This document shows positions 3,372-30,471 of a stretch of DNA of 33,923 bases, in pieces. This stretch comes from Dehalococcoidia bacterium (lineage in GTDB: Bacteria > Chloroflexota > Dehalococcoidia > DSTF01 > JACRBR01): contig JANPBN010000097.1 of assembly GCA_031430415.1 (NCBI GenBank), positions 1-33,923 of the forward strand. Reading direction: 5' to 3'. The notes beneath the pieces were generated by a model that was not told where the DNA came from, ran no database searches, and saw only the letters and a program-made list of their open reading frames with translations. Each line of letters starts with the position of its first letter. Within the stretch, counting starts at the first letter, position 1. Position numbers and translations under genes: made by a program.

Positions 3372-3400
3372 GAAGGGGCGAAGCTTAAGGCTTCGCCCCT
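3372..3400. terminator. Bidirectional stem-loop between convergent genes
   Basis: AAGGGGCGAAGC (3372-3383), loop TTAAG, GCTTCGCCCCTT (3389-3400) form a perfect 12-bp GC-rich stem, followed by TTTC on the plus strand. It overlaps the stop codon of the minus-strand GT4 gene. Confidence 0.7.
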
Positions 3401-4527
3401 TTCTCATATACATCGCGATACACCTCCAGGTGGCGCGCGACACACCGCGTCCACGTCCACAAGCGTGCGCGTTCGGCGCCCGCGGCGACGAGACCGCGCC
3501 GCCGATCGCTGGAGCCGAGAACCTCGCGTATTGAGGCGGCGATTTCACCTTCGTTCGATGGGTTGAAGTACACGGCTGCATCACCCAAAACCTCGCGGAT
3601 CGCCGGCAGGTCGGACGCGACGACGGGCACGCCGCACGCGGCTGCCTGGAGAGGAGGCAGTCCGAATCCCTCGGCGAGCGAGGGAAACAAGAGCATCTCG
3701 GCATGCGTGTAGAGCGACCGGATGGTGGCGTCATCCAGCCCGTGCGCCAGTCGGACGCGTGGCGCGCACTCGAGCATGGCGACGAACTCCTCGATTGCCG
3801 CGGCGTGACCGGAGCCGGCATCGACGATCGCGACGAAGGAGTGGTGGAGTTCGCGCCTGGCGACGGCGTCGAACGCGACGAGGGCGCGGCGCAGGTTCTT
3901 GCGCGGCTCAAAGGATCCCGCGAAGAGCACGTACGGCTTGGCCAGACCCAGCGTTAGTAGGGGCGATGGGTCGGGGTTTGGAGCGAATGCGACGCCATTG
4001 GGTATCACCTCAATCCGCGACTCGGTTGCGCTCGTGACGGTCGTGATTTGTTTTCGCGAATCTTCGGAGACGGTGATCACGCGCGCGCTTCTAATGGCGC
4101 GGCGCAGGTTCCAACGATAGAACGCGCGGAGCCTCCACGGGAGGTCGGTGCCGTACAGGGTGAGCGGAATCACGTCGTGCACGGTCGTGATAACGGGGCA
4201 GTCCATTCCTGGAACGGGCGGCATGGACGCGCGGACGTGTGTTGCCGGTGCGTGGAAGAGGTCGAGATGATCGGCGGCGCCGGCACGGCGCAGCGTCCAC
4301 AACCGCGTTGCAATCGCGCCGAGCTTTTGTGGCGCCCTGGTGGACGGAGCGCGCCACGCCACGACGTCGGGCAGCCAAGCGGGTCGCGGTTCGCCCGGTG
4401 CGCCATAGGCGACGACCTCGACGCCGCCGATCGTGGCGAGACCGGAGATCAGGTGCTGCGCGTATTGCCCCATCCCGGTGAACAGCGTGGTGCCGGACAA
4501 TCCCCAGGCGTCGAATCCGATGCGCAT
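3385..4527 (-). CDS. Glycosyltransferase family 4 (GT-B fold); last gene of the cluster
   Basis: 380 aa. N-terminus MRIGFDAWGL is typical of GT4. The C-terminal donor-binding motif FPSLAEGFGLPPLQAAACGVPVVASD carries the E(x7)E signature. Confidence 0.9.
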   Translation of the reverse strand: MRIGFDAWGLSGTTLFTGMGQYAQHLISGLATIGGVEVVAYGAPGEPRPAWLPDVVAWRAPSTRAPQKLGAIATRLWTLRRAGAADHLDLFHAPATHVRASMPPVPGMDCPVITTVHDVIPLTLYGTDLPWRLRAFYRWNLRRAIRSARVITVSEDSRKQITTVTSATESRIEVIPNGVAFAPNPDPSPLLTLGLAKPYVLFAGSFEPRKNLRRALVAFDAVARRELHHSFVAIVDAGSGHAAAIEEFVAMLECAPRVRLAHGLDDATIRSLYTHAEMLLFPSLAEGFGLPPLQAAACGVPVVASDLPAIREVLGDAAVYFNPSNEGEIAASIREVLGSSDRRRGLVAAGAERARLWTWTRCVARHLEVYRDVYEKGAKP

Positions 4528-4530
4528 TCG

Positions 4531-5688
4531 CTAGGTGCGCACGCGCGGGCGCGCGCCGATCTCGTCGATGTGTTCGTCGATGCGGTGGGTGAAGGTGTCC
4601 CAACTGAACTGCGCGGCCCGCCCGCGAGCCTGTACGCCCATGCGATCGAGCGCGCAGTCACTCATCGCCTCCATGGCGCGCATAGCGCCGGCAAAGGCAG
4701 GCGCTGTATCTGGCAGCAAGAGGCCGGTGTGTCCGTCGACGACGGTTTCTCGTGGACCACCTCTGTCCGTCGCGAGCACCGGCTTGCCGCAGGCCATCGC
4801 TTCCAACGGTACAAGACCGAGGTCCTCGTTGAGTGCCGGATGAACCACCGCGTGGCTTCGCTGATAGAGGTGGACGAGTTCGTCATCACCCGGATTAGGG
4901 ACGAAACTGACGTCGGGGCGATCCGCCGCCAATGCGCGAAGATGACCAAGATAGGGTTCGCTCTTGCGGTCGACCATCCCGGCGATCACCAGCCTGAACG
5001 CATTGTCCGCCGGCCGGGGCTTGAAGAGTGTCCAGGCTTCGAGTGCCAACTCGACGTTCTTCGTCCACATGATGCGCCCGGGCACGAGGAAATAGGCATC
5101 GCGCGCACCGCCTGGGAGGAAACGGTCGCAATCGACGCCGTGGTAGGCGACTTCCACCCGGTCTGGGCTGACGAGGTTCGCGTCGAGCACGCGCCGCATG
5201 GTCTCGCGGCTGTTACAGAAGACTCTCGCGTAGCGCCGCCAGGCTGGCCGTTCGAGCCGAGCGTACAGCGTTGTCGCAAAGCGTTGCGGCAGATGCCGGC
5301 CATTCTGGAAGTACTGGCTGCGTGTCGCTTGGTCGTAGACGATTTTGAGCGGCGTCAGGCAGACGCAGGATGTCGGCACGGTCGTGCGAAGCGCAGTCAG
5401 ATTGCCAAGTCCTTCGCTGACGACGACCATAGCGTCGTGCGGCGTTGTATCGATCTTCTGGGTGAGGAGCGTGGCGCCGGCGCACGCGACATCGAGCAGG
5501 GAACGCCGCACCGAGACCTCGCGCAGCAGGCGGATGGGCATGCGCTGGAACTCCGGGAACGTGGCCTCCGGTTCGTAACGGTTGGTATAGAGCGTCCAGT
5601 CGTGGCGGCTGCGTGACATGAGTTCGAGTAGCGTGCGCTCAGCGCCGCCCTTGAGGTACACCCACGGATAGTAAAGTGCGGGTCTCAT
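4531..5688 (-). CDS. Glycosyltransferase family 4
   Basis: 385 aa. Motif HPALNEDLGLVPLEAMACGKPVLATDRGGPRETV. The ATG overlaps the upstream stop (ATGA at 5685-5688). Confidence 0.9.
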   Translation of the reverse strand: MRPALYYPWVYLKGGAERTLLELMSRSRHDWTLYTNRYEPEATFPEFQRMPIRLLREVSVRRSLLDVACAGATLLTQKIDTTPHDAMVVVSEGLGNLTALRTTVPTSCVCLTPLKIVYDQATRSQYFQNGRHLPQRFATTLYARLERPAWRRYARVFCNSRETMRRVLDANLVSPDRVEVAYHGVDCDRFLPGGARDAYFLVPGRIMWTKNVELALEAWTLFKPRPADNAFRLVIAGMVDRKSEPYLGHLRALAADRPDVSFVPNPGDDELVHLYQRSHAVVHPALNEDLGLVPLEAMACGKPVLATDRGGPRETVVDGHTGLLLPDTAPAFAGAMRAMEAMSDCALDRMGVQARGRAAQFSWDTFTHRIDEHIDEIGARPRVRT

Positions 5689-6866
5689 CGAGCTGCCTCA
5701 CGATAGACCTGGATCATCTCATCTGCGACGGCGTCCCAGCGGAAGCGCGCTGCATGGGCCAATCCGGCATTGGCGAGGCGCTCGTGCCGCCCGCGGTGGG
5801 TGAGCACAGAAGCGATCGTGTCGGCAAGCGCCTTCTCGTCCTCGGGATGGACGGTTGCCGCGGCAGGGCCGGCGATTTCGGCCAGCGCTGTGGTGCTGGA
5901 TGTGATGACGGGCGTGCCGCATGCCATCGCTTCGAGTGGCGGCAGTCCGTACCCCTCGTGAAGCGATGGATATGCGAAGACGTCTGCACCGGCGTACGCT
6001 GCAGGCAACTCCGCATCGTCGACATACCCGATGAATTGGATGCGGTCGCGCACGGCTGACTGCTCGTAGGCCGCGCGCACAGGGCCGGTTTTCCAGCCGC
6101 TCGCCCCTGCAATAACGAGGTGGTGCGGAAGGCCCTCCCGCCGCACGGCGACCTCGAACGACCGTATGAGCCGCGCAAGATTCTTCCGTGGCTCAACCGT
6201 ACCCACAAAAAGCACGTACGGCGTGGAAATCTTGCAGCGCGCGCGGAACGCTTCCACGGCGGAGCGTTCCTGAGGCATGAAGCGACTGCTTATGCCTTCA
6301 CCAACGATGCGGATCTTTGGTCGCACCGAGGGGAAGCGGGCGGCGAGTCGCTCCCCCGTGTAGGACGAAACGCACACGACGCGCGTGGCCTTCCGCATGG
6401 CGATCGCGGTGAGGACGCTGAGGTAGAGGTGCGATCGCAGGCGGTGCACAGAGCGGTCGAGGAACGCCATGTCGTGCACGGTGACGACGGATGGGCAGCG
6501 CAGCGCCACGGGCAGGATGTAGTTCGGCGAGTGGTAGACGTCGGGCTCGGTTCGGCGGACACCAAACGGAACGACGCACTGTTCCCATAGCGCGCGTGTG
6601 TATTCGTTTGGGGTAGGGAACGGCGCCCGCCTCCGCGTGATGGGAAGTGCGTCTAGCCCGTCGTCGGCCCTCGTCAGGAAGACATCCAGGCGCACACCAT
6701 CTGCCGTGGCCAGTGCGCGGATGAGCTCGTCGGTGTATCGCACTACACCCGAGAACTGGCCCCGAAGCGAGCGCCCCATCATTGCCACTCTCAGCGGCGC
6801 GATGTCATGCTCGATCCGGGATTCATCCGCAGCGAAGGGGCGATCGGTCGGCAGTGCGATGATCAT
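5685..6866 (-). CDS. Glycosyltransferase family 4
   Basis: Motif YPSLHEGYGLPPLEAMACGTPVITS. Start chosen at the internal ATG (MIIALPTD..), which forms an ATGA overlap with the stop of the GH99-like gene. The longer track ORF (to 6983) adds an Arg-rich extension that would overlap that gene by about 120 nt. Confidence 0.85.
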   Translation of the reverse strand: MIIALPTDRPFAADESRIEHDIAPLRVAMMGRSLRGQFSGVVRYTDELIRALATADGVRLDVFLTRADDGLDALPITRRRAPFPTPNEYTRALWEQCVVPFGVRRTEPDVYHSPNYILPVALRCPSVVTVHDMAFLDRSVHRLRSHLYLSVLTAIAMRKATRVVCVSSYTGERLAARFPSVRPKIRIVGEGISSRFMPQERSAVEAFRARCKISTPYVLFVGTVEPRKNLARLIRSFEVAVRREGLPHHLVIAGASGWKTGPVRAAYEQSAVRDRIQFIGYVDDAELPAAYAGADVFAYPSLHEGYGLPPLEAMACGTPVITSSTTALAEIAGPAAATVHPEDEKALADTIASVLTHRGRHERLANAGLAHAARFRWDAVADEMIQVYREAAR

Positions 6867-7972
6867 GGCGACGCACCGGGCATCGCTTTGAATCGGTCGA
6901 GGTAGCGCCGTGTGATCGCGATGTACTGGCGACCGAACTCGTCCGAATCGGCGATGTCGCTCGCCTCGTGAAACTCGTTCCATGTCTCGATGACGATCGT
7001 CCTCGCGCCGGTGTTCAACGCGCCTTCAAAGTTGCGCTCGTAGAACCGGCCATTCTCTCGATCCGCGAACCGTCCGCTGCGACCGGGACCGTCCAGCTCG
7101 CGCTCGTCGTATCCGGGGCCGACAGCGGCAATACTCGAACCGATGTCGCGAAACCCGGTCAGTGACGCGCCCCAGGCGTAGAATCCGTCCAGGTGTATCG
7201 GCCGTGACGGATCGAGCCCGCCATCGCCGACGTCGGTCGCAAATCGCCAGCTCGCCTCGGCGACGATGTAGGGTCGCACGCCGAAGTCCTCCTCGAACCG
7301 GCGCGAGACGTAGTCGAACAACTCCTGATCGAACGAGATCTCGAACCACGAAGCCCACATCCAGAGCGCCGGACGGCCGGAAACCATGGCCCACTGATCT
7401 CGCGGCAGGATGGAGTAGAAGGTGTTGATGAGGCTATAGAAACGGCGCTGATTGTCGGGGTTCGTAAAGTCGCGTTGCCCCTTCGGCCAGCGGCCGATGA
7501 GCCCTGTATCGAGGAACATGGCAATCTGAGGCGGATCCCCGCCTTCGGCTGACATGGCAGCCGCCGCACGCGACATGTTGGCGAGTCCCACGTCGCTCGA
7601 CGGCTCGGCATCGCCCCAGTAGACGGCGAGGGCGACATCGATGCCGGCGTCGGTCATGTCCGCGAATTGCTTCTTGAACCAGTCGGCGTTCCGGTAGCTC
7701 GCGTTCGGCTCGGCCGGGCGATCGGTGAGGGCGCCGTTGTGGGGGCCATCCGGCAAGTCGTACCAGTAGTAGAAATAGGTGTATGCCTGCCGTGGCTGGC
7801 TCGAATCGGGCGTTGCTTCGGCGAACGGCGGAAGCGCGACCGGTGGGCGGCTTCGCTTGGCCGAGGCGGAGACGCCCCAGAGTACGAAAAACGCCACGAC
7901 CAGGACGCCGCCAATGATGATCCAGCGCCGCCAGCGGTTCCGCCGTGTCGTCCCGCGCTCCATGAACGTCAC
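6863..7972 (-). CDS. Membrane-anchored GH99-like glycoside hydrolase (endo-alpha-mannosidase/mannanase family homologue)
   Basis: GTG start in a GTGA overlap with the upstream GT4. Basic N-terminus plus a single TM (WIIIGGVLVVAFFVLWGV). Blocks line up with GH99: YTYFYYWYDLPDG (FYYSWYGNPQFDG), GIDVALAVYWGD, LDGFYAWGASLTGF (FDGIYTYFATNGF), AAVGPGYDE (PSVGPGYID), IETWNEFHEASDI (ITSFNEWHEGTQIE). Both Glu of the N-E-x-H-E motif are present. Confidence 0.7.
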   Translation of the reverse strand: MTFMERGTTRRNRWRRWIIIGGVLVVAFFVLWGVSASAKRSRPPVALPPFAEATPDSSQPRQAYTYFYYWYDLPDGPHNGALTDRPAEPNASYRNADWFKKQFADMTDAGIDVALAVYWGDAEPSSDVGLANMSRAAAAMSAEGGDPPQIAMFLDTGLIGRWPKGQRDFTNPDNQRRFYSLINTFYSILPRDQWAMVSGRPALWMWASWFEISFDQELFDYVSRRFEEDFGVRPYIVAEASWRFATDVGDGGLDPSRPIHLDGFYAWGASLTGFRDIGSSIAAVGPGYDERELDGPGRSGRFADRENGRFYERNFEGALNTGARTIVIETWNEFHEASDIADSDEFGRQYIAITRRYLDRFKAMPGASP

Positions 7973-9156
7973 CGCGGCACCCCGGCGGCGGTCCGGGCTT
8001 CATCGAGCGACTGATCGGTGGCCGGAGCTCGGCCGGTGGCCGCGCGGTACACGTCCAATGTCTGGCGGGCTGTCTCCGCCCACGTGTAACGGCTGGCGCG
8101 GGCCCAGCCAGCCACGGACATCATCCGCTGCTCTCCGGGCGATGTGACGATGTCGAGGATTGCGGCGGCAAGAGCGGCATCGTCGAGGGGCGCCACAAGT
8201 CGCGCGGCGTCCCCAAGAATCTCTCGGTGCGCCGCCAGATCGGAGGCGATGACGGGTGTGCCCGCGGCCATCGCTTCGAGCGGCGGCAGGCCGAATCCTT
8301 CGGCGAGTGAAGGAAAGACGAACACTGTGGCATTCCGATACAACAAGGCGAGATCGCCATCGGTGAGGCCGGACACGATACGGACGCGACCATGCAGCCC
8401 AGACCGGCGAATCTCCTCATGGATGGGTATCGCGTCGCCAGAGCCGGCGGCTGCAACGACGACGAGCGCGAGGCCTGGTGCGGCGCTTGCCACGCGCGCA
8501 AACGCCTGAAGGACGGTGATGAGGTTCTTACGCGACTCGAACGAGCCCACGAACAGGACATAAGGCGTGACTTGATCGCGTCGCTCGCCGATGGGTGTCT
8601 GGACAACGCCGTTACAGACAACATCAAGCCGGTCAGCGGGCAGCGCCAGCAGACCAGAGATCTCGGCGCGCGATGCGCGGGAGACAGTGATGACGCGCGC
8701 GGCGCGGCGCACGGCGCCAAGGTTCCAGCGATACCACGCGCGCTGCCGCAACGGCAGCCGACGCGGGCCCTTACCGTACAGCGTCATCGGTATCACGTCG
8801 TGGAGCGTGACGACGAGCGGACACGTTAGGCGACGCGGGACGGGAGGCCATGCTGGCCGTGGATGCACCGTCGGCGCATGAACGACATCCAATCCGAGAT
8901 CGCGGGCTAGCTGAGGCAAGCGCCACATGTACGATGCGAGGAGCGAGAGCTTTCCGAGGTGGGGAACCGGAAGCATGTGTATGCCCACGCCATCGCTCGT
9001 TGTCATCGGGAGATCCGTACCCTCCGGAGCGAACAGCTCAATGCGGTGGTCGCCGGACGTGTCGGCGAGCGCACGTACGAGACCATCGACGTAACGTCCG
9101 ATGCCAGAGTAGCGCGTCTCTGGCCCCAGAATCGACGCGTCGATGCCGATCCTCAC
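7969..9156 (-). CDS. Glycosyltransferase family 4
   Basis: Motif FPSLAEGFGLPPLEAMAAGTPVIASD. Start set at the GTG (V)RIGIDASILG, which forms a GTGA overlap with the upstream stop. The track ORF extends to 9240 with an Arg-rich overlapping extension. Confidence 0.85.
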   Translation of the reverse strand: MRIGIDASILGPETRYSGIGRYVDGLVRALADTSGDHRIELFAPEGTDLPMTTSDGVGIHMLPVPHLGKLSLLASYMWRLPQLARDLGLDVVHAPTVHPRPAWPPVPRRLTCPLVVTLHDVIPMTLYGKGPRRLPLRQRAWYRWNLGAVRRAARVITVSRASRAEISGLLALPADRLDVVCNGVVQTPIGERRDQVTPYVLFVGSFESRKNLITVLQAFARVASAAPGLALVVVAAAGSGDAIPIHEEIRRSGLHGRVRIVSGLTDGDLALLYRNATVFVFPSLAEGFGLPPLEAMAAGTPVIASDLAAHREILGDAARLVAPLDDAALAAAILDIVTSPGEQRMMSVAGWARASRYTWAETARQTLDVYRAATGRAPATDQSLDEARTAAGVPR

Positions 9157-14904: not shown

Positions 14905-14916
14905 CGACCACCCCCT

Positions 14917-22914: not shown

Positions 22915-22948
22915 GGTTCCTCCTCCGGTTTGGTGCGGCCGCACATCG

Positions 22949-23992: not shown

Positions 23993-24031
23993 GCGCTGCG
24001 GCCTCGAATAGGTGGCATAGGGACGGTCGGT

Positions 24032-24065
24032 ATCTTATGGACAGGCGGTTAACCGATGGTTAACC
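24032..24065 (-). promoter_or_regulatory. SARP-type promoter: heptamer direct repeat plus -10 box upstream of methyltransferase paralogue 2
   Basis: The minus strand reads GTTAACC-ATCG-GTTAACC-GCCTGTCCA-TAAGAT. On the plus strand this is two GGTTAACC palindromes at 24047-24054 and 24058-24065, with ATCTTA at 24032-24037. It lies in the only long (207 nt) intergenic gap of the cluster, about 40-70 nt upstream of the start at 23992. Confidence 0.6.
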
Positions 24066-24199
24066 GGAACGACGGATTTGGCCTGCGCCGATCGCTGCCT
24101 GGCCCGCTATGAAGATGCGTTCAACCGGGGTACCGCGGCGAATCGGAATCGGCGGAGAGGCGGGAACGTCCGGCGCACGGAGTGCCAGTTATTGGCGGG

Positions 24200-25345
24200 T
24201 TAAATTCGGCGAATGCGCCGGCGGAGCGACTGCCAGAACGACGGCCTCATTTTCAGCACATCGTGCATCGGCAGCTCGCTGAGCGCTGCAACCAGCCGGC
24301 CCCCCGTCGCCGCGCCCACGCCGTCATCGAGCTGCTCATCGACATCGAGCATGGAACTGAGGATCACGATCTGACTGAACTGGTTGGCCACGGCGAGCCG
24401 GTAGTCGAGCCAGCAATCGTCATAGGAGTAATCTCGCACGCCGCCCTCCACGAGGAGCTCGTGGTATTGAGGCAGCAGCTCTCGTTCCGCGAGCGCGCGA
24501 TCGTTCGGCTGCAGGCTGCTGACGAACAGGTTCGCGATATCGATAGGCCCGCGGCCCCGCACGGCTGTCTGCCAGTCGATGAATGCTCGCGGCCCCCCCG
24601 CTTCGTCGAAGAGCACGTTGTTGACGCGCAGATCGCCGTGAACGAGCGTCTGCGGCGCCGTCGACAGCCGATCGACGACGGACTGGTCACGGGACAGCGT
24701 CGCACCGAGGCGAAGGATCACCGGCGGCATGTGCCGGCCGAAACGCCCCTCGAACGAACGCCACGCTCCCGGTCCTTCGGCGACGCCCAGCGCGGTGACG
24801 GATGGATCGTTGGGCGTGGGTAGCCAACGTTGGTCGCGAAGCTCGGCGGATTGCCACCAGGCCGCGTGCATTCCAGCTATCTGCTCGACGATGGCGCTCG
24901 CCTCGCTCAGGCTGCAGCCCCGGAGGAGGTCGCCGGCACGGGCACCGGTTACGTCCTCGAGCAGAAGCACGGCGCTCAGACCATCGGCGACGCCAAAGTA
25001 CATGGCGGGAACAGGGACGCCCACGCGCTCGGCCAGGGTGTCGTAGAAGTGCTGCTCGCGCTCGTAGATGCGTAGCCGCGACGCGATCTCGCGTGTGGCG
25101 GGGGCGCTCGACGGGAACTTCGCGATGAGTGTTACCGGGGCCTGATCCTCGGGGATGTCGTAGGTCAGACGCACGCGCACCACGCGCCCGGCCATGCCCT
25201 TGCCGGCGGGCTCCACATGAATGGACGCGACGTTCGCGCGCTGCAGCACAACGCCTCGGAGCGCAGCGGTGAGCCACGCGGCGCTGAGAGACTCCGGGCC
25301 GTCCGGGATGTCGCGGACGGGTGTGTGGCGCGTCGCGATTATCAT
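24200..25345 (-). CDS. APH/choline-kinase-fold phosphotransferase (eukaryotic-like kinase fold)
   Basis: 381 aa. Catalytic loop LVHGDLRVNNVLF (HxDxxxxN) and metal-binding IDWQ. Confidence 0.8.
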   Translation of the reverse strand: MIIATRHTPVRDIPDGPESLSAAWLTAALRGVVLQRANVASIHVEPAGKGMAGRVVRVRLTYDIPEDQAPVTLIAKFPSSAPATREIASRLRIYEREQHFYDTLAERVGVPVPAMYFGVADGLSAVLLLEDVTGARAGDLLRGCSLSEASAIVEQIAGMHAAWWQSAELRDQRWLPTPNDPSVTALGVAEGPGAWRSFEGRFGRHMPPVILRLGATLSRDQSVVDRLSTAPQTLVHGDLRVNNVLFDEAGGPRAFIDWQTAVRGRGPIDIANLFVSSLQPNDRALAERELLPQYHELLVEGGVRDYSYDDCWLDYRLAVANQFSQIVILSSMLDVDEQLDDGVGAATGGRLVAALSELPMHDVLKMRPSFWQSLRRRIRRI

Positions 25346-25351
25346 CAGCCG

Positions 25352-26950
25352 CTAGCCGCCGAGTTTCGCGATGACCTGGTTGAGGAGCACGAGCACCTTT
25401 GCCTGTGCGACACAGTCGGCGAGATAGTCGCCGGAACCACCGCATGAATCGACGTGCGGGCGCAGATCCTTCAGCGTAACGAGTGCGGCTGCGGGCGCGT
25501 TCGCTGCAATCTGGGCTGCCGCCGTCGCGAGCGGCGTGTTGATCTGAGAAGCGCTGGACCCTGGCGCGAATGCGGATCCGGGCAGCGCCGAGACGACGCC
25601 GGAGATCCAACTCGGGTCGGCGACAAGATAGCGGGCGAGTGCGAAGTCATCGCCGGCGGTACCGGGGTTGTAGGCATCGCCGACGAGAACCACGGCGCCA
25701 TCGGGAAACAGAGCCAGTGCGTGGGCGCCATCTGCTCCGCCGAAGAAGTCGGTGGTGACGTGGCCGCCGCTCCCGAAGGTTGCGTCGGGACTCCCATCCT
25801 GGTTGTAACGGAAGAGCGCGAAGTCAAAGCTGGTCGCCGGGTGGACGCTGTGGCCGGCGCCGATGATCTTGCCATCGGGCTGAATCGCGAGCCACAGGAT
25901 CTGGTCGTACTCGCCAGAGACATCGGTGACGCCGATGCCGGGTGCGCCGAACGCGGCAAATCCGGTGTCGAGACTGCCATTTGTGTTCAGCCGCATGATG
26001 GCGGCATCGTTGTCAGCGCCGGCCGGGTTGAACGCGTAGCCCGCCGCGACGATCTTTCCGTCGGCCTGGAGCGTCACGGCCCACGCGATGTCGGTTCCGC
26101 CGAGGAAGTCACGCATCACCAGGCCGCCCCAGCCGAATGACGCGTCGCGGCCACCGTTGGCGTTGTATCGCGCGACGGCCATGTCGTGGTTCGCCGTCTT
26201 GGGGTTGAACGCCATGCCGACGGCGACGATCCTTCCATCGGGCTGAAGAGCGATCTTCATCGCCGCGTCGTTGCTTCCCGCGAAGTCCGTCGTAACGAGC
26301 CCACCCCAACCGAAACTGCCGTCGCGGCTGCCGTTTGCGTTGTAGCGTGCCAGCGCGAACTCTGAGTTGTTTGCGGTCCGATAGGCGAATCCCGCAGCAA
26401 CGATCTTGCCATCGACCTGAACGGCGACACCGAGCACAGTGTCCGCGCCGCCGAAGAAGTCGGTCATGACGATGCCGCCCCAGCCAAACGTGCCGTCACG
26501 GCTGCCGTTCGCGTTGAGGCGCGCAATCCCGAAGTCCGCGTTTCCTGCCGCGCGATCAGCGCGCCCGGCAATCACGATCTTGCCATCCGGTTGAAGCGCG
26601 ACGGACAGGCCTTCGTCGTACCCGCCAACGAAGTCCACGAGGACGATGCCGCCCTGCCCAAACGACGGATCGAGCGTTCCGTTCGGCCGGTACCGAAGCA
26701 CGGTGGCATCGAACGATCCCGTCGACGGATTGCGGGCCTTACCGGCGATCACCATGTTTCCATCGGGTTGCACCGCCATGGAGAACGGCTCGTCCTCGTA
26801 CCCGCCGGCGCCGGAAACATCGAGGAGCGCTCGGCCGTTGGCGCCGAACGTTGGATCGAGCAGCACCGGTACGGTGGCCGCATCGGCGACGAGGAGGATC
26901 GAAAACAGCGCCGCAGAAGTTGCTGCGAGGAGAAGCAGCGCGCGTTTCAT
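25352..26950 (-). CDS. Secreted delta-60-repeat protein (7 repeats, predicted beta-propeller) with a Cys-containing helical C-terminal module
   Basis: Signal peptide MKRALLLLAATSAALFSILLVADA. Seven ~58-61-aa repeats follow, of the form [LR]D.[ST]FG.GG.V..DF.GG.D.A.AVALQ.DGKIV.AG.A.......DFA.ARYN.NGS. The ATG forms an ATGA overlap with the upstream methyltransferase stop. Confidence 0.85.
   Translation of the reverse strand: MKRALLLLAATSAALFSILLVADAATVPVLLDPTFGANGRALLDVSGAGGYEDEPFSMAVQPDGNMVIAGKARNPSTGSFDATVLRYRPNGTLDPSFGQGGIVLVDFVGGYDEGLSVALQPDGKIVIAGRADRAAGNADFGIARLNANGSRDGTFGWGGIVMTDFFGGADTVLGVAVQVDGKIVAAGFAYRTANNSEFALARYNANGSRDGSFGWGGLVTTDFAGSNDAAMKIALQPDGRIVAVGMAFNPKTANHDMAVARYNANGGRDASFGWGGLVMRDFLGGTDIAWAVTLQADGKIVAAGYAFNPAGADNDAAIMRLNTNGSLDTGFAAFGAPGIGVTDVSGEYDQILWLAIQPDGKIIGAGHSVHPATSFDFALFRYNQDGSPDATFGSGGHVTTDFFGGADGAHALALFPDGAVVLVGDAYNPGTAGDDFALARYLVADPSWISGVVSALPGSAFAPGSSASQINTPLATAAAQIAANAPAAALVTLKDLRPHVDSCGGSGDYLADCVAQAKVLVLLNQVIAKLGG
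25622..26860 (-). repeat. Seven in-frame ~175-185-bp divergent tandem repeats encoding the delta-60 blades
   Basis: Read from the translation. Repeats start at LDPTFGANG, LDPSFGQGG, RDGTFGWGG, RDGSFGWGG, RDASFGWGG, LDTGFAAFG and PDATFGSGG. Confidence 0.8.
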
Positions 26951-27927
26951 CGGGCGGAGACTTCCGTCGTGCGCGCGTGTGCCGGTGCGGCCGTATCGTC
27001 ACTCGAACGTCGCGCCCGGAAGATCACCTTTTCGACCGGAAACGGGTGGTGGTAGACCAGCGGCAAGCGCGCGACCTCGTCGACAGTATCGAAGCCGGCG
27101 ACCTGGAGCATTGTGCGCAGCGTCATCGTCGACGGCACGGACCAGATGTACTGGTAGAAGCCGAAGAACTGCGTCATGGCGGTGTTCCCCAGCCCCTCCA
27201 ACTCCGGATTGTACGGTTCGGCGAGGAGCAGGAACCCTCCCGGCTTCAGCATGGGGTAGATGCGTTCCAGCGCACGCTGCGGGTCGCGCAGGTGCAGCAT
27301 CAGATCGCTGACGAACACCATGTCGAAGGTGCCGAGGTCATGCGGCGAGAGATCGTACACGCTCACAGTTCGCCGCTCGACGCGCGAGCCGAGCAGTTCG
27401 TGGGCGAGGCGAAATCCGGCGCCTGTCGGCGTATCTTCGTCCGGGGCCATGCGTTCGAGCGTTCGGAGCGGAATGTCGGCGTGAAACCATGACGGGATGT
27501 CCGTGGCGACGACGACGGCGCCCCGGCGCTCCATCTCGAACGCCCAAAACCCGTCGAAGGTAGCGACTTCGAGCACGCGCATACCGTGCATGTCGGCGGG
27601 CAGGCAATAGCGATCCCTGATGGCGCGGTGGTCAACATATCCGGGCGTCACAACGCCGTGGGGCAGTTCAATGACGTGGTACCAGTCGACACCCTGAACG
27701 CGCTCGGCGATCGCGCGCGCTGGCGGAGACACGTACGCGGACGGATCGAGCGTGGCGCGCGTCCCGGGCAGATCCAGTGGCGCCGAAGACTGGGCGGCAC
27801 GGCCGAACAGCCGCAGGACGGGCGCGGCAAGGCGACGGATGCGGCGCGCCTGCCGCTCTTCGACGCCAAGCGCAATCTCGAAGCCCGCGATGCGGAGGCG
27901 TCGGCGCCGGACCATCGTGTCAGCCAT
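26947..27927 (-). CDS. Class I SAM-dependent methyltransferase, paralogue 3
   Basis: Start at MADTMVRRRRLRIAGF lies 11 nt after the upstream stop. The track extension to 28026 is Arg-rich and overlaps the upstream gene. Blocks: WYHVIELPHGVVTPGYVDHR, VLEVATFDGFWAFEMERRGA, FDMVFVSDLMLHLRDP. Confidence 0.85.
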   Translation of the reverse strand: MADTMVRRRRLRIAGFEIALGVEERQARRIRRLAAPVLRLFGRAAQSSAPLDLPGTRATLDPSAYVSPPARAIAERVQGVDWYHVIELPHGVVTPGYVDHRAIRDRYCLPADMHGMRVLEVATFDGFWAFEMERRGAVVVATDIPSWFHADIPLRTLERMAPDEDTPTGAGFRLAHELLGSRVERRTVSVYDLSPHDLGTFDMVFVSDLMLHLRDPQRALERIYPMLKPGGFLLLAEPYNPELEGLGNTAMTQFFGFYQYIWSVPSTMTLRTMLQVAGFDTVDEVARLPLVYHHPFPVEKVIFRARRSSDDTAAPAHARTTEVSAR

Positions 27928-27938
27928 TGTCGTCTTTC

Positions 27939-28706
27939 TCAGCTGCCGGCGGCGGCGGCCGCGCCATCGATTTCTGCGGTGGCTCGGCCGGCGGCCGGCG
28001 CGTAGCGTCGCGCGTGCTCCTGCCATGCCGGAGTCAACTCCTGCTGGTCCTTCAGCGTATCCATCGAACGCCAGAAACCACGGTGACGATAGATGTACAG
28101 ATCCTGCCGCTGCGCGAGATGTGGAAGCACATCGCGCTCAAGATTCTCGCCGTGCCAGCGATCGAAGGCCGACGAGTCGAACACGAAGAAGCCGGCGTTG
28201 ATCAATCGATCGGGGAGGATGGGCTTCTCCTCGAAGTGCGTGACGCATCCCTGGTCGTCCGAGTGCACAAGCCCGTACTGCGAGCGAAGCGGCACGGCCG
28301 TCATCGTCGCGTTCCCTCGATGCGTCTCGTGGAACTCGACGAGCGCTGCGAGGTCGATGTCGCCCAGTCCATCGCAATATGTCGCGTGGAACGTGGGCGT
28401 CAGGTAGTCGCGGCAACCAAGGATGCGGCCGCCTGTGCCGGTCGTATCGCCCGTATCGACGCAGCGTACACGCCATCCGAGGGCGTCCTCTCGTCGCGCG
28501 AAATGGTCGATGATTTGGTCTTTCAGGTAGCCGACCGAGAGCACGAAGTCACGGTATCCGGCGGCAGCGTAGATGCGCATGACCTGCTCAACGATCGGCG
28601 CATCGCCGACGTCCATCAGAGCCTTCGGCATGCGCTGCGTGTACGGGTAGGCGCGGGTACCGAGTCCGCCGCACAGGATCACCACGGTCATGTCGCGCTG
28701 CGTCAT
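27939..28706 (-). CDS. rfbF: Glucose-1-phosphate cytidylyltransferase-like sugar nucleotidyltransferase
   Basis: About 255 aa. VVILCGGLGTRAYPYTQRMPKALMDVGDAPIV, VDTGDTTGTGGRI, YCDGLGDIDL, INAGFFVFD and HRGFWRSMDTLKD follow the RfbF pattern. The ATG (MTQRDMTVV) forms an ATGA overlap with the upstream stop; the alternative ATG is at 28691. Confidence 0.75.
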   Translation of the reverse strand: MTQRDMTVVILCGGLGTRAYPYTQRMPKALMDVGDAPIVEQVMRIYAAAGYRDFVLSVGYLKDQIIDHFARREDALGWRVRCVDTGDTTGTGGRILGCRDYLTPTFHATYCDGLGDIDLAALVEFHETHRGNATMTAVPLRSQYGLVHSDDQGCVTHFEEKPILPDRLINAGFFVFDSSAFDRWHGENLERDVLPHLAQRQDLYIYRHRGFWRSMDTLKDQQELTPAWQEHARRYAPAAGRATAEIDGAAAAAGS

Positions 28707-29743
28707 CGGACGCTCCCGTTGGCGCCGGCCTTCGCGAACTCGCGTGGCAGCGATGGCTCGAATCCCAGGAACTCGCGATACCACCGCACGCTCTGCATGA
28801 TGCCCGAATCCAGGGACACTTGCGGCGCCCAGTCGAGGATCCGTGCCGCCTTCTCCGAGGAGAGCCATTGCCGTGCTATCTCGCCGCGGTTCTGGCCCTG
28901 AATGACAGGCTCCAACGGCGCCGGAGCGTGCGCGAGAATCTGGCGAACGATCTCGAGCACAGAGTAACCCCGTCCCCAGCCGAAGTTGAACGCCTGCCCG
29001 CGCACATCGTCGCGACCGACGTTCCGCGCGAGGGTCAAGTATGCATCGACCGCGTCACTCACGTACATGTAGTCTCGCTCAAGCGTTCCATCGCTGCGGA
29101 TCACCGGCGCCTCGCCGTTGAGCATCGAGCGGATGGTGCCGGGGACGACGCGGGACCAGTTCAGGTCGCCGGGGCCGTAGATGTTCGCGCAGCGAACGAT
29201 TGCCATCGGCAGGCTATAGGTGACGGCGTAGCTGCGGGCGATCGTCTCCGCACAGAGCTTGGACGCGTCGTAGGGGTAGACCGCGGACAACGGACTATCC
29301 TCGTGGTACGGAAGAACCGGTTGATCGCCATACACCTTGTCGCTCGAGGCGAAGACGAGGCTCTGAAGGAACGAACTCTGTCGGGCTGCCTCCAGCAGCG
29401 TCCAGGTTCCGCGGATGTTCGACTCGAACGTCGACAGCGGCGAGCGATTCGCGACGCCTACGATGGCCTGGGCAGCGAGATGGAAGCAGTGCTGCACCTC
29501 GTATTCGTTGAAGGCGCGTTCAACGGTGGCGTAGTCGGCGATCGAACCGTGGACGATCTCCACCCGGCCGGTGAGGCCGAGCATGTCCAGCCGCCTGTCG
29601 CCACGTGAGTCGCGGAGAATGCCGACGACGTGCGCGCCCTGCTCGACGAGAGCAGCAGCGAGTTGACTCCCCACAAAGCCACCGATGCCGGTGACAAGCG
29701 CTCGCTGCCCACGCCAGTAGCCGGTGCCGTTGTTCGAGGCCAT
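28703..29743 (-). CDS. Extended-SDR NAD-dependent sugar dehydratase/epimerase (CDP-glucose 4,6-dehydratase-like)
   Basis: YWRGQRALVTGIGGFVGSQLA (GxxGxxG), SSDKVYG and the catalytic YPYDASK (YxxxK). The N-terminal YWRG..LVTG and the position next to the rfbF-like gene suggest RfbG-type. Start at ATG 29743 (AAGGGAG about 7 nt upstream) overlaps the upstream TAA by 1 nt (TAATG). Confidence 0.65.
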   Translation of the reverse strand: MASNNGTGYWRGQRALVTGIGGFVGSQLAAALVEQGAHVVGILRDSRGDRRLDMLGLTGRVEIVHGSIADYATVERAFNEYEVQHCFHLAAQAIVGVANRSPLSTFESNIRGTWTLLEAARQSSFLQSLVFASSDKVYGDQPVLPYHEDSPLSAVYPYDASKLCAETIARSYAVTYSLPMAIVRCANIYGPGDLNWSRVVPGTIRSMLNGEAPVIRSDGTLERDYMYVSDAVDAYLTLARNVGRDDVRGQAFNFGWGRGYSVLEIVRQILAHAPAPLEPVIQGQNRGEIARQWLSSEKAARILDWAPQVSLDSGIMQSVRWYREFLGFEPSLPREFAKAGANGSVR

Positions 29744-30471
29744 TACCATGCTCCCTTGCCGCTGACGATCACGGGAATTGTCCGTGCGAGAATCCAGATG
29801 TCGAGCCAAAGGGACCAGTCCCGCGCGTACCGGATGTCCATTTCCACCATCTCGCCAAACGACAACAAGCTGCGACCGTTCACCTGCCACAGACCTGTGA
29901 TGCCGGGCACGGCCAGCACACGGTGCGCGTGGTAGTCGCTCAGTGGGTTGCCCGCTTCCTCCGGCAGGGCGGGACGCGGCCCGACGAGGCTCATATCGCC
30001 GCGGAGCACGTTGAACAGCTGCGGCAGCTCATCGATGCTGAAGCGGCGGATCCAGCCGCCGACAGAGGTGCGTCGAGGGTCATGCTTGATCTTGAAGAGC
30101 GGTCCGTCAGCTTGGTTTTGGTTCGCCAGGCCACCCTTGGCGACATGGGCGTTCACAGCCATCGAGCGAAACTTGTACATACGGAACGGACGCCCGCTGA
30201 GCCCGACGCGCTCCTGCACGTGGAGTACCGGCCCACTGGAGTCGAGCTTGATCGCTAGCGCCACGACGAGCATTGGCGGGCCGAGCAAGACGAGTCCGGC
30301 CGCAGCGACGACGATGTCAATCAACCGCTTGAGCGCCATCTGGAGGCGCTTGGCCTGCTGGCCCCACGAAGTCGGCGCCGGAATCACCCACATGGCGCTC
30401 ACAGCCACCAGGCGAAGCGATTCTGCGGGCAGCGGTGTCGCGGTCAATGTGGTGCCGAGATGCTGTTCCAT
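29743..30471 (-). CDS. Initiating phosphoglycosyl transferase (bacterial sugar transferase family, small WbaP/WcaJ/PglC-like)
   Basis: 242 aa. LKRLIDIVVAAAGLVLLGPPMLVVALAIKLDS re-entrant helix, then RPFRMYKFRSM, GPLFKIKHDPR, DELPQLFNVLRGDMSLVGPRP, PGITGLWQV. GAAGGA lies 8 nt upstream of the ATG. Confidence 0.9.
   Translation of the reverse strand: MEQHLGTTLTATPLPAESLRLVAVSAMWVIPAPTSWGQQAKRLQMALKRLIDIVVAAAGLVLLGPPMLVVALAIKLDSSGPVLHVQERVGLSGRPFRMYKFRSMAVNAHVAKGGLANQNQADGPLFKIKHDPRRTSVGGWIRRFSIDELPQLFNVLRGDMSLVGPRPALPEEAGNPLSDYHAHRVLAVPGITGLWQVNGRSLLSFGEMVEMDIRYARDWSLWLDIWILARTIPVIVSGKGAW

Follow-up and report, generated by a model that had tools for sequence, protein, structure and literature searches.

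A glycan-assembly operon from a Dehalococcoidia bacterium, possibly a merger of two assembly modules

The window analysed here, a whole 33.9-kb contig, carries on its minus strand an unbroken chain of 24 tightly packed genes (30471 to 3385, 27 kb). We read the chain as a single operon with which an uncultured Chloroflexota bacterium, monoderm and bearing an S-layer, makes a cell-surface glycan that is methylated and possibly phosphorylated; two assembly modules, one of ABC-transporter type and one of Wzy type, may have been merged in it. This is the best reading of the locus, and taken as a whole it has, in our estimate, a probability of slightly less than 0.4. Among Chloroflexota metagenome-assembled genomes (MAGs) the locus is conserved, and many relatives have the same mix of known components. 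A PCP (Wzc/Wzz-fold) protein, a pseudokinase, a GT2, a Wzy_C protein and GT4s keep one order in all related loci (L001-L010, L014-L023, L026-L028, L031-L035, L039-L041, L044 and L089); the PCP, the pseudokinase, the Wzy_C protein and glycosyltransferases form the invariant core.

Gene content and packing

By Pfam and NCBIfam scans, the chain encodes one Bac_transf phosphoglycosyl transferase (PGT), two enzymes of sugar-nucleotide type, ten glycosyltransferases (6 GT4, 4 GT2), one APH-like kinase and four methyltransferases, of which three stand alone and one is fused to a GT2. It also encodes an ATPase and a permease of ABC-2 type, a PCP-fold protein with two TM segments, the CapB-like partner of the latter, a polytopic protein of the Wzy_C family, a beta-propeller that is secreted and a GH99-like protein that is anchored in the membrane. 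Together with fold matches, these scans bear out the gene inventory of the preliminary description and its label of a ‘hybrid’ locus. The coding sequences sum to 26,850 nt (overlaps counted twice) against a span of 27,087 nt. With the start codons that we chose, on which these counts depend, genes overlap by 4 nt at 11 of the 23 junctions and by 7-23 nt at 3 more. The ATGA/GTGA overlaps reported earlier (at 5685, 6863, 7969, 9153, 11883, 15972, 17790, 18818, 20632, 26947 and 28703) are all present, as is the TAATG at 29743. The chance of an A or G before TGA is about 1/2, and so by themselves the 4-mers are no proof; support for the chosen starts comes from orthologue alignments, which begin at them or within a few residues.

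The conserved core and the ABC module

The following genes would make up the Wzy-type module:

29743..30471, minus strand: initiating polyprenyl-phosphate PGT, 242 aa (Pfam Bac_transf 219 bits)
14917..15975, minus strand: GT2 glycosyltransferase, companion of the PCP core (Glycos_transf_2 94 bits)
13534..14904, minus strand: PCP-fold protein, 456 aa, no kinase domain (two TM segments; AF2 fold)
12863..13525, minus strand: CapB-like P-loop protein of BY-pseudokinase type, 220 aa (phmmer to CapA/CapB chimeras, E 2.5e-15)
11883..12857, minus strand: GT2 glycosyltransferase, rhamnosyltransferase-like (Glycos_transf_2 70 bits; NCBIfam rhamnosyltran 68 bits, under cut-off)
10348..11886, minus strand: Wzy_C-family polytopic membrane enzyme, about 10-12 TM (Pfam Wzy_C 36 bits, cut-off 31.7)
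9153..10370, minus strand: GT4 glycosyltransferase (Glycos_transf_1 90 bits)
7969..9156, minus strand: GT4 glycosyltransferase (Glycos_transf_1 101 bits)
6863..7972, minus strand: putative DUF5010/GH99-like glycoside hydrolase, membrane-anchored (Pfam DUF5010, Glyco_hydro_99; N-terminal TM anchor)
5685..6866, minus strand: GT4 glycosyltransferase (Glycos_transf_1 111 bits)
4531..5688, minus strand: GT4 glycosyltransferase (Pfam/NCBIfam scan)
3385..4527, minus strand: GT4 glycosyltransferase, the operon's last gene (Pfam/NCBIfam scan)

The PGT has the C-terminal catalytic domain of EPS_sugtrans/WbaP/WcaJ (NCBIfam) and a single TM-like hydrophobic segment. The 456-aa and 220-aa proteins, for which Pfam gives no significant match, had been described as a Wzz-like co-polymerase and a BY-kinase-like partner. 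The first call is upheld by an AF2 model (pLDDT 81), in which N- and C-terminal TM helices enclose a long helical exo-domain; its Foldseek matches are Wzc (E 3e-7), WzzE/WzzB (about 1e-3) and KpsE (about 1e-2). NCBIfam matches to KpsE/EpsF are weak, and homologues are named KpsE/RkpR by JGI. The partner is indeed a homologue of S. aureus CapB, but it is pseudokinase-like: Walker A reads GDGRS, with Arg in place of Lys, Walker A' has degenerated, Walker B (DTPP) is retained, and the protein has no C-terminal Tyr cluster. The motif G[DE]GR[ST] and Tyr-free tails are found in 17 of the 17 loci matched by motif scan (window included), and also in L016 and L020. The only documented pairs of a PCP-2 and a BY pseudokinase belong to Wzx/Wzy pathways (EcpK/EpsV, HfsB/HfsA; PMC12004946). 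The orthologue of the GT2 at 14917..15975 adjoins the PCP gene in L015, L020 and L028; the GH99-like protein, predicted to face outward, is kept in most relatives, and the GT4 family of 4531..5688 is widespread (729 matches at E<1e-60, Dormibacteraeota and Acidimicrobiales MAGs among them).

The Wzy_C gene, whose start is overlapped by the stop of the GT2 at 11883..12857, had been called Wzy/O-antigen-ligase-like, and both the HMM check (Wzy_C) and the best fold match place its product in the Wzy/WaaL superfamily. The top Foldseek match of the AF2 model (pLDDT 86) is WaaL (7TPG, 2e-5), followed by FtsW/RodA; among orthologues, Arg/Asp/Glu residues are invariant and His366 nearly so. The modelled fold is closest to a ligase, and instead of a polymerase the protein might be a ligase for an ABC-exported polymer, the first of two alternatives offered earlier; comparing its profile with E. 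coli WaaL, WzyE, WcaD and WbbH gave no guidance. This alternative is less favoured, however, since the PCP, the pseudokinase and the Wzy_C protein remain linked even in loci that lack the ABC module (L028, L040 and L041). That module consists of five genes:

20632..21825, minus strand: GT4 glycosyltransferase, first gene of the module (Pfam Glyco_transf_4, Glycos_transf_1)
18818..20635, minus strand: methyltransferase-GT2 fusion (MT-GT2), 605 aa (Pfam Methyltransf_23, residues 99-212; Glycos_transf_2, residues 279-403)
17790..18821, minus strand: ABC ATPase, DrrA/ABCA-like (Pfam ABC_tran 108 bits; DrrA1-3_C, weak)
16999..17793, minus strand: ABC-2 permease, six TM segments (ABC2_membrane_3, ABC2_membrane)
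15972..17012, minus strand: GT2 glycosyltransferase, companion of the ABC pair (Glycos_transf_2 102 bits)

The GT4 lies directly upstream of MT-GT2 in L001, L006, L022, L026 and L035. The MT-GT2 stop overlaps the ATPase start (ATGA), and the adjacency of these two genes is conserved in relatives. The arrangement resembles the slg clusters, in which WsaE/Wzm/Wzt are ABC-dependent, methyl-capped glycan modules (PMC2943079); here an MT-GT fusion and an ABC-2 pair are coupled in translation. An ABC-2 pair is thus present, but its earlier description as the hallmark of ABC-dependent polymer export does not carry over to its sequence, which is DrrA/ABCA-like and not Wzm/Wzt-like. The ATPase scores highest with drrA among 187 NCBIfam families (251 bits), its best PDB matches are the ABCA4/3/7/1 NBDs (E 1e-60 to 1e-54) and 4YER, and it carries a DrrA-type C-terminal domain and no Wzt-type carbohydrate-binding domain. 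In the PDB, a permease profile of 10 orthologues matched only ABCG23-like/ABCH chains (E 4e-11), and no Wzm, TarG or KpsM chain reached E 10. The pair is not recognisable as a Wzm/Wzt, KpsMT or TagGH; its sequence family is DrrA/ABCA/ABCH (drug/lipid exporters), and NCBIfam and PDB searches linked it specifically to no glycan exporter of proven function.

Although of a drug/lipid family, the pair is conserved within the cluster: the module is attached in about 15 of the 18 assessable lineages. The identities of the ABC pair and Wzy_C fall in step (71/64% in L001, 61/60% in L002, 56/48% in L015 and 49/37% in L014). The module nevertheless behaves as a separable unit. In L015, the ATPase-permease-GT2-methyltransferase unit is inverted as a block; in L028, the GT4, MT-GT2, ABC pair and GT2 are absent together, and the core is intact from the 14917-15975 GT2 orthologue to DUF5010. 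A GT2 resembling that of the ABC module is present without any ABC pair in L040 and L041, which blurs the module boundary.

Flippase genes and the two proposed routes

As described before, neither a Wzx flippase nor a Wza/OPX-like protein is encoded in the window: no ORF scanned matches MOP/Polysacc_synt or Poly_export, and the only polytopic proteins are the permease and Wzy_C. Because the window is a whole contig, this statement holds for the locus and need not hold for the genome. The missing OPX is unremarkable, as Chloroflexota is a monoderm phylum (PMC10284905). In the distant L014/L016-L018/L050, L032 and the Dormibacteraeota MAG L020, which count as two to three lineages, a Polysacc_synt (MOP) flippase ends the same operon, and in L020 it completes a canonical Wzx/Wzy/PCP set. 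Relatives were inspected to about 3-10 kb past the cluster ends; L089, the closest long contig, has no Wzx within 9 kb downstream. The ABC pair might replace Wzx, but L014 and L016 carry both, so that there the pair must be more than a stand-in for Wzx.

The comparative data favour the second of the earlier alternatives, merged routes, over the first: the core holds together without the ABC module, that module is separable, and an in-operon Wzx stands beside the same core in distant lineages (L014/L016, L032 and L020). With merged routes, the ABC module would be responsible for both the synthesis and the export of a methyl-capped chain, or segment of a chain, of its own. The Wzy-type route would use the PGT, the GT2s at 14917-15975 and 11883-12857 and the five GT4s to build repeat units on polyprenyl phosphate in the cytoplasm. 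The Wzy_C enzyme would join these units outside the membrane, controlled by a ring of the split PCP-2b-like co-polymerase and the CapB-like pseudokinase scaffold, and the outward-facing GH99-like hydrolase may then trim or release the polymer. The two products would presumably be combined on the surface, as with the cell-wall polysaccharide loci of dual-pathway type in lactococci and enterococci; merged ABC and polymerase/co-polymerase loci exist in monoderms (PMC9574508). The flippase of the Wzy branch would here be unlinked, outside the window. The window also contains no second initiating enzyme (TM-bearing GtrB-like GT2, or WecA/TagO type) and no joining enzyme of GT-C or LCP type, and so the two-module model needs several unseen, unlinked genes.

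Sugar supply, modification and flanking genes

The remaining operon genes and the two flanking genes are:

30859..31863, minus strand: SARP-type regulator (Trans_reg_C and BTAD)
28703..29749, minus strand: SDR of the NDP-hexose 4,6-dehydratase/epimerase family (Pfam Epimerase, GDP_Man_Dehyd)
27939..28706, minus strand: sugar-1-phosphate nucleotidyltransferase (Pfam NTP_transferase)
26947..27927, minus strand: SAM methyltransferase, paralogue 1 of 3 (Pfam Methyltransf_23/11/12; cross-matches the other two)
25352..26950, minus strand: secreted delta-60/DUF5122 beta-propeller (Pfam DUF5122 208 bits; NCBIfam delta_60_rpt 356 bits)
24200..25345, minus strand: soluble APH/EcKL-fold kinase, candidate sugar kinase (Pfam EcKL, APH)
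22949..23992, minus strand: SAM methyltransferase, paralogue 2 (Pfam Methyltransf_23; weak TIGR04290-family match)
21865..22914, minus strand: SAM methyltransferase, paralogue 3 (Pfam Methyltransf_23/11)
2228..3349, plus strand: secreted TSP3-repeat protein, Ca-binding type (Pfam TSP3_bac 117 bits)

The top NCBIfam matches of the SDR (CDP-glucose 4,6-dehydratase, 180 bits) and the nucleotidyltransferase (glucose-1-P cytidylyltransferase, 183 bits) are both under their cut-offs. For the kinase, no PDB relative was found below E 0.05, and WbdD was not matched. The SDR may start at 29749 or 29743, and alternative starts exist for methyltransferase paralogues 1 (28026) and 3 (22977); a Shine-Dalgarno-like GGAGGAGG lies upstream of 22914.

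The SARP-type regulator is directly upstream of the operon on the same strand, and a BTAD protein flanks the cluster in L019 too. The TSP3-repeat protein is a conserved neighbour of the distal end (L002/3, L022/23, L025/26 and L089). The beta-propeller, whose N-terminus is signal-peptide-like, is kept in L006-L009 and L015, and it has in common with the TSP3-repeat protein a C-terminal domain of about 100 aa (hhalign probability 98.9%, E 1.3e-17).

Composition of the operon

The operon is a single chain of 24 minus-strand genes, from 30471 down to 3385. These genes, in transcription order, and those of the two flanks are listed below.

Genes of the glycan operon, numbered in order, and flanking genes (operon genes assigned with Pfam/NCBIfam models unless another source is given)
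Gene 1, minus strand: small Bac_transf phosphoglycosyl transferase (PGT)
Gene 2, minus strand: NDP-hexose 4,6-dehydratase/epimerase-family SDR
Gene 3, minus strand: sugar-1-P nucleotidyltransferase (nearest, below cut-off, the CDP-glucose pair)
Gene 4, minus strand: methyltransferase
Gene 5, minus strand: delta-60/DUF5122 beta-propeller with a signal peptide
Gene 6, minus strand: APH/EcKL-fold kinase
Genes 7-8, minus strand: methyltransferases, paralogous to the gene 4 product
Gene 9, minus strand: GT4 glycosyltransferase
Gene 10, minus strand: methyltransferase-GT2 (MT-GT2) fusion
Genes 11-12, minus strand: ABC ATPase, then ABC-2 permease (6 TM)
Genes 13-14, minus strand: two GT2 glycosyltransferases
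Gene 15, minus strand: 456-aa protein with one TM helix at either end (fold search; without a Pfam match)
Gene 16, minus strand: 220-aa P-loop protein (CapB homology)
Gene 17, minus strand: GT2
Gene 18, minus strand: 512-aa Wzy_C protein, about 10-12 TM
Genes 19-20, minus strand: two GT4s
Gene 21, minus strand: DUF5010/GH99-like protein with an N-terminal membrane anchor
Genes 22-24, minus strand: three GT4s
30859-31863, minus strand: SARP-type (BTAD) regulator, upstream flank, same strand as the operon
2228-3349, plus strand: secreted TSP3-repeat protein, downstream flank, convergent

Pfam and NCBIfam bear out the count of ten glycosyltransferases in the preliminary description, and both place the initiating PGT within the cluster in the Bac_transf family. 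A TM scan finds no TM segments in any of the glycosyltransferases (including all four GT2s), in the methyltransferases or in the kinase. Two of the GT4s, at 4531-5688 and 5685-6866, retain ~60% identity in L014, L031, L039 and L044 (L-numbers denote related loci from metagenome-assembled genomes, MAGs), where Wzy_C identity is 32-38%; the protein of gene 15 is also far less conserved than these two GT4s in distant clusters. The family of the first of them has 729 matches at E<1e-60, MAGs of Dormibacteraeota and Acidimicrobiales among them. Judging from this conservation, the two enzymes probably build a portion of the glycan that is itself conserved.

The ATGA/GTGA overlaps and the TAATG that had been taken as a sign of extreme packing are all found in the sequence. 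Overlaps of 4 nt occur at 11 of the 23 junctions and overlaps of 7-23 nt at three further ones (with the start codons chosen in this report), and the single sizeable intergenic gap, of 207 nt (23993-24199), lies between the kinase gene and the next methyltransferase gene. About half of TGA stops are expected to show such a 4-mer by chance; the start calls are validated not by the 4-mers themselves but by the alignments of orthologues, which begin at residues 1-7 for most of the overlapping genes. The packing is thus ordinary translational coupling in a high-GC operon and not a feature in its own right. GC content is even across the window (0.62-0.67), and a horizontal island was rejected on this basis. 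A scan of the window with Rfam matched no RNA feature, and a tRNA-Gln(CTG) predicted by ARAGORN at 7326-7399 on the minus strand is most likely a false positive, because it lies inside the conserved DUF5010/GH99-like coding sequence.

Two units in the related loci

Related loci were gathered by exact-protein look-ups, by a scan of GTDB genomes anchored on the MT-GT2 fusion and by a metagenome scan anchored on Wzy_C, and all window proteins were mapped onto them by tblastn. The relatives are MAGs labelled Dehalococcoidia, Chloroflexia, Chloroflexota or Chloroflexi bacterium, together with one distant cluster in a Candidatus Dormibacteraeota MAG. Among these MAGs are CAWIYS01 (L007), GCA_030649945.1 (L008), JAJTXQ01 (L009) and GCA_016213115.1 (L089), and L041 lies on a 1.1-Mb contig. 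L006 and L007 retain all 24 genes in the same order, PGT first and GT4s last, and L008-L010, L022 and L026 largely do so. Every locus contains the core, which runs GT2, PCP protein (gene 15), CapB-like protein (gene 16), GT2, Wzy_C and GT4s, usually with the DUF5010 gene. The ABC module (GT4, MT-GT2, ATPase, permease and GT2) is present in ~15 distinct lineages (the window; L001/7; L002/3/8; L004/5/9; L006; L010; L014/16-18/50; L032; L015; L019; L021; L022/23; L026; L033; L035; L044), and its identity falls in parallel with that of Wzy_C. Counted by the permease and nucleotide-binding domain (NBD) pair, it is within the operon in ~15 of the 18 assessable lineages.

Rearrangements divide the operon along the same lines. 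The block of ATPase, permease, GT2 and methyltransferase is inverted as a unit in L015; in L028 the GT4, MT-GT2, ABC pair and GT2 are jointly absent, with the remainder intact, and the ABC pair is absent from L040 and L041 as well. A Polysacc_synt (MOP/Wzx) gene lies at the distal end of the operon in the L014/L016-18/L050 lineage, in its relative L032 and in L020, the Dormibacteraeota cluster, and in the L014/L016 operon it occurs together with the ABC pair. At each of these loci Wzx is flanked by conserved proteins of ~327 aa and ~960 aa, and the three proteins of this trio are 48%, 54% and 40% identical between L016 and L020. The PCP/pseudokinase/Wzy_C trio thus behaves as one unit, which may be accompanied by Wzx, by the ABC pair, by the two together or by none of them; the ABC pair, to judge from its behaviour, belongs to a second unit that has glycosyltransferases and a methyltransferase of its own. 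The Wzx trio occupies 15930-21209 in L016 and 11652-17022 in L020, and begins at 19722 in L032; its ~327-aa protein is without a Pfam match, and its ~960-aa protein is soluble, with a faint HAD (Hydrolase_3) signal.

Within the second unit, the best NCBIfam family of the ATPase is drrA, at 251 bits (cut-off 312), followed by GldA, NodI and others; no TagH, KpsT or Wzt model is among its best 25 NCBIfam matches. In the PDB, the NBDs of ABCA4, ABCA3, ABCA7 and ABCA1 (E 1e-60 to 1e-54) and T. maritima 4YER come first, and the best 60 matches are ABCA, NosF, MetN and similar proteins, with no Wzt, TarH or KpsT chain among them. [quoted passage not shown] A permease profile built from 10 sequences finds solely ABCG23-like chains in the PDB (E 4e-11), and no glycan-exporter TMD reaches E 10 in that search. 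Membership of the Wzm/Wzt, KpsMT or TagGH families was rejected on this ranking in NCBIfam and the PDB. By sequence, the pair is assigned to the type-V ABC-2 exporters, in their drug/lipid/lipo-oligosaccharide branch; we infer its role in glycan export from genomic context, not from family membership. The stop codon of the MT-GT2 fusion gene overlaps the start of the ATPase gene, and the fusion has a putative role in chain termination.

The pair could, then, be an unrelated drug or lipid efflux system that merely lies inside the cluster, and its best families, DrrA/DrrB of daunorubicin resistance and the eukaryotic ABCA/ABCH lipid exporters, agree with such a view. However, it is found in the same position, with overlapping start and stop codons on both sides, in ~15 lineages at 36-64% Wzy_C identity, and it rearranges together with the GT2 and the methyltransferase. 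Because of this conservation and the codon overlaps, a hitch-hiking drug pump, already disfavoured, is effectively excluded, and we consider it very improbable.

Assembly proteins and candidate routes

The Wzy_C protein scores 36 bits in Pfam against a threshold of 31.7. Its AF2 model (pLDDT 86) has WaaL 7TPG as its best Foldseek match (E 2e-5), followed by FtsW/RodA; other ligases, polymerases and O-OTases are not among the best 50 Foldseek matches listed. Sequence and profile searches of the PDB matched nothing, and hhalign comparisons of the family profile with E. coli WaaL, WzyE, WcaD and WbbH all gave probabilities <1%. Across the family, the large external loop carries a near-invariant His366; Arg163, Arg176, Arg250 and Arg304 are invariant and Arg239 is nearly so. 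On its predicted fold, the protein is placed in the Wzy/WaaL/SEDS superfamily, an assignment at superfamily level that holds for a polymerase and a ligase alike.

The 456-aa protein has no match in Pfam and, by phmmer and profile searches of the PDB, gives coiled-coil noise alone; it was a fold search that identified it as a PCP. The AF2 model (pLDDT 81, 16 homologues) has two TM helices, an alpha/beta base and long helical hairpins, and it matches Wzc at E 3e-7, WzzE/WzzB at ~1e-3, and FepE and KpsE at ~1e-2. NCBIfam gives weak KpsE/EpsF matches, and the JGI names for homologues are KpsE/RkpR. The modelled fold marks it as a genuine PCP-family member without a kinase domain.

Its 220-aa partner had been described as BY-kinase-like. 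The fold family is upheld by homology to S. aureus CapB (E 2.5e-15), but the kinase motifs are not: the P-loop, GDGRS, has Arg at the catalytic-Lys position of BY kinases, Walker A' is degenerate and the C-terminus (...VVLNEF) is without the Tyr cluster, while Walker B (IIDTPP) is retained. The G[DE]GR[ST] motif and a Tyr-free tail are found at all 17 loci of a motif scan (window included) and also in L016 and L020, so that the Lys-to-Arg substitution spans Chloroflexota and one Dormibacteraeota MAG. By its motifs, the protein is consistent with a recently defined class, the BY pseudokinases that act as scaffolds for PCP-2 proteins without a kinase domain, as in the pairs EpsV/EcpK of M. xanthus and HfsA/HfsB of C. 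crescentus (PMC12004946). There, too, a kinase-less PCP is accompanied by a stand-alone BYK-fold protein without a Tyr-rich tail or catalytic residues (PMC12004946), but the hosts of those pairs are diderms that also have Wzx, Wzy and OPX. EcpK is without any Walker motif, whereas the family in the window keeps the P-loop, with its conserved Lys-to-Arg change, and an intact Walker B; for this reason, nucleotide binding may persist in it.

In textbooks, Wzx/Wzy-dependent and ABC-transporter-dependent glycan assembly are alternative routes. The preliminary description had called the locus a hybrid of the two, and the term stands: the Wzy_C protein falls in the right superfamily, and the ABC pair, though DrrA-like, is conserved with the cluster. 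Our best reading, tentative at a probability a little below 0.4, is the second of the two alternatives offered there, in which two routes are merged in one operon. One would be a Wzy-type core, read as such because pairs of a PCP-2 protein and a BY pseudokinase have elsewhere been described only alongside Wzy polymerases (PMC12004946). The other would be the ABC-type module, with its MT-GT fusion coupled to an ABC-2 pair, a coupling that is also found in methyl-capped S-layer glycan and O-antigen systems (PMC2943079). The flippase, a second initiator and a joining enzyme would then all be unlinked.

Lactococci and enterococci provide the nearest precedent for merged routes, in their dual-pathway loci for cell-wall polysaccharide (L. 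lactis cwps and E. faecalis epa; PMC9574508). These likewise combine in one locus an ABC-dependent chain and a second chain, which depends on a flippase and a polytopic polymerising enzyme and is regulated by a Wzz-like protein with two TM segments (PMC9574508), and their hosts are also monoderm, hence without OPX. However, cwps and epa have their own flippase (WpsG/Wzx), second initiator (WpsA/B) and GT-C or LCP joining enzyme; the window has none of these, which weakens the merged-route reading, and it is also without rml genes. The PCP in the window, in turn, has a CapB-like pseudokinase partner, and the ABC pair is DrrA-like where that of cwps/epa is RgpCD/Wzm-Wzt-like. A strict Lactococcus-type 'dual-chain' locus was rejected, since second initiator, flippase and GT-C/LCP enzyme are all missing from the window.

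Searches for these parts confirm the earlier observation that neither a MOP flippase nor a Wza/OPX protein is in view. No MOP flippase is present in the window, nor within ~3-10 kb of the cluster in closer relatives; in L089, the closest long contig, there is none within 9 kb past the operon. With Wzx and its two flanking proteins as queries, tblastn finds no match in the window or at any locus besides L014/L016-18/L050, L032 and L020. The window also contains no TM-bearing GtrB-like GT2 or WecA/TagO-type protein that could serve as a second initiator, and no match to an LCP or GT-C joining enzyme. There is no Poly_export match in the window, but this absence is expected and carries no weight, because Chloroflexota, cultured Dehalococcoidia included, are monoderm and S-layered (PMC10284905).

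The missing flippase may have another explanation: the DrrAB-like pair itself could flip polyprenyl-PP-linked repeat units, which Wzy_C would polymerise under the control of the PCP and pseudokinase, the MOP protein having been replaced in most lineages. A hydrophobicity scan finds that the permease and Wzy_C are the sole polytopic proteins of the window and of every closer relative. Moreover, the ABC pair is in the operon in ~15 lineages, as their sole linked translocase, against two to three with Wzx, and the nearest relatives of its NBD (ABCA, DrrA and NodI) export lipids or lipo-oligosaccharides, so that a lipid-linked oligosaccharide would be a better fit than a long polymer. ABC flippases can do the job of a MOP protein: Wzk of H. 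pylori is reported to move O-antigen and to be able to substitute for MurJ (PMC2841628, PMC4990322), and it is this ABC transporter, not Wzx, that moves the polyprenyl-PP-linked glycan before a Wzy_C-family enzyme, WaaL, handles it (PMC2841628). Wzk, though, is a PglK/MsbA-type half-transporter and not an ABC-2 pair, and its route has no PCP. The relatives also argue against a flippase role, as Wzx co-exists with the ABC pair in the L014/L016 operon, and the pair is lost (L028) or moved (L015) along with its own glycosyltransferases and methyltransferase, which suggests that it serves their product rather than that of the core. In L028, L040 and L041 the same core is present without Wzx or the ABC pair in its vicinity; unlinked flippases thus clearly occur in this locus family. 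We know of no type-V ABC-2 transporter that feeds a Wzy polymerase, and on balance we consider such an arrangement unlikely here.

Merged routes must also be weighed against the first alternative of the preliminary description, a single ABC-dependent route. In the cytoplasm, the whole glycan would be built on one lipid carrier and modified by the soluble methyltransferases and the kinase, before the ABC-2 pair exports it. Wzy_C would act as a ligase or O-oligosaccharyltransferase, like those of slg or O-antigen/WaaL systems, and pass the glycan on to an acceptor that could be a secreted or S-layer protein. Around the exporter, PCP and pseudokinase together would serve as a cage, like that of KpsE, or as a length gauge. 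Such a route requires no unseen gene. It has a model in the slg loci of G. stearothermophilus and Paenibacillus alvei, with their WbaP-type PGT, ABC-2 exporter, soluble glycosyltransferases (in G. stearothermophilus), MT-GT fusion WsaE adjoining and overlapping the transporter genes wzm/wzt, Wzy_C-domain transferase WsaB, tight packing and nearby surface-protein gene (PMC2943079). Several features of the window point the same way: the WaaL fold match of Wzy_C with its conserved His366 and Arg set, the predicted cytoplasmic location of all modifying enzymes, the weak KpsE-family signals of the PCP protein, a private C-terminal domain common to two secreted proteins tied to the locus, and the S-layered, monoderm nature of Dehalococcoidia (PMC10284905).

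However, slg has no PCP/BY-like pair and no glycoside-hydrolase-like protein, its glycosyltransferases are far fewer, and its Wzt is predicted to bind the methylated cap, whereas the ATPase in the window, with its DrrA-type C-terminal domain, does not have the domain for cap recognition that would be expected with methyl or phosphate marks as export signals. A single route also leaves the invariant linkage of PCP and pseudokinase unexplained, and all known pairs of this kind accompany Wzy polymerases (PMC12004946). The PCP/pseudokinase/Wzy_C trio is kept without the ABC module in L028, L040 and L041 and adjoins Wzx in L020 and L016, and a glycoside-hydrolase-like protein anchored in the membrane typically accompanies secreted polymers, not protein glycosylation. 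We therefore regard a single ABC-dependent route as doubtful.

Two further systems share features with the window. A type-V ABC-2 exporter is common to the window, the E. coli O8/O9a system (WbdA-D, Wzm/Wzt) and the group-2 capsule system KpsMT-KpsE, where KpsE is an example of a PCP-family member that works with an ABC exporter. Also shared are GT4/GT2 polymerising enzymes, together with a methyltransferase and a kinase that would be available to cap the non-reducing end. However, neither cluster has a Wzy_C protein, the PCP fold in the window scores better against Wzc than against KpsE, and the Wzt carbohydrate-binding module is absent. The kinase in the window has no similarity to WbdD: it has no PDB relative below E 0.05, with WbdD unmatched, and a WbdD-like chain-terminating function was rejected for it.

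The observation itself is real and reproducible across many uncultured Chloroflexota: in many lineages a conserved operon permanently couples an ABC-2 exporter to Wzy_C, a PCP and a BY pseudokinase, usually without a linked Wzx. Every part is of a known family, and the combination itself is new. Depending on the reading, the locus could show how two routes combine outside lactic-acid cocci, that a Wzy polymerase can be fed by an ABC-2 transporter, or that ABC exporters can be served by PCP/pseudokinase complexes. Should the ABC pair have taken over the job of Wzx in most lineages, delivering repeat units to a Wzy polymerase under a PCP-2b/BY-pseudokinase ring, which we think improbable, it would define a fourth, 'ABC-fed Wzy' glycan route in monoderm Terrabacteria. 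Through the locus, BY pseudokinases become known from monoderm phyla as well, in a form marked by the conserved Lys-to-Arg change in the P-loop, and the almost uncultured, S-layered Chloroflexota of Dehalococcoidia type gain a first concrete candidate for the synthesis of an envelope glycan. The value of the locus is that of a well-defined, testable system rather than a new principle.

Secreted proteins and neighbouring genes

In at least five lineages, the gene for the TSP3-repeat protein directly adjoins the distal end of the operon. It is convergent with the operon in the window (2228-3349, plus strand), L002/3 (18105-19322 in L002), L022/23 (18601-19743 in L022) and L025/26 (18469-19611 in L026), and co-directional in L089 (12518-13921). 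The protein shares a C-terminal domain of ~100 aa (encoded at ~3050-3346) with the delta-60 propeller of the operon (~25355-25650); hhalign of the two orthologue alignments gives a probability of 98.9% and E 1.3e-17 over 91 columns. The domain, covered by no Pfam model, has the motif nGCPxxPDxnDxIxDCxAQxxvR with two conserved Cys, and it could be a glycan-binding, anchoring or acceptor module. The TSP3 protein may have a functional link to the glycan, as a surface protein that is anchored or glycosylated.

The SARP/BTAD regulator is a possible candidate for a cluster-specific regulator. A regulator of this type also flanks the cluster in L019 (13641-14360), where it is downstream and on the opposite strand. 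In L089, RAMA, phage-integrase, ParB_N and DNA-methylase genes (14274-17485) directly follow the cluster and its TSP3 gene; this mobile-element-like patch is absent from the window. The GT4s of L039 are followed by a polytopic PMT_2 (GT-C) protein (10236-11675). Upstream of the cluster in L028 (7-5838) are two AsnB-like amidotransferases, an HPr-kinase-like P-loop protein and an NTP_transf_5 protein, and downstream (18745-20097) is a GH99/WbsX-like protein with a dockerin.
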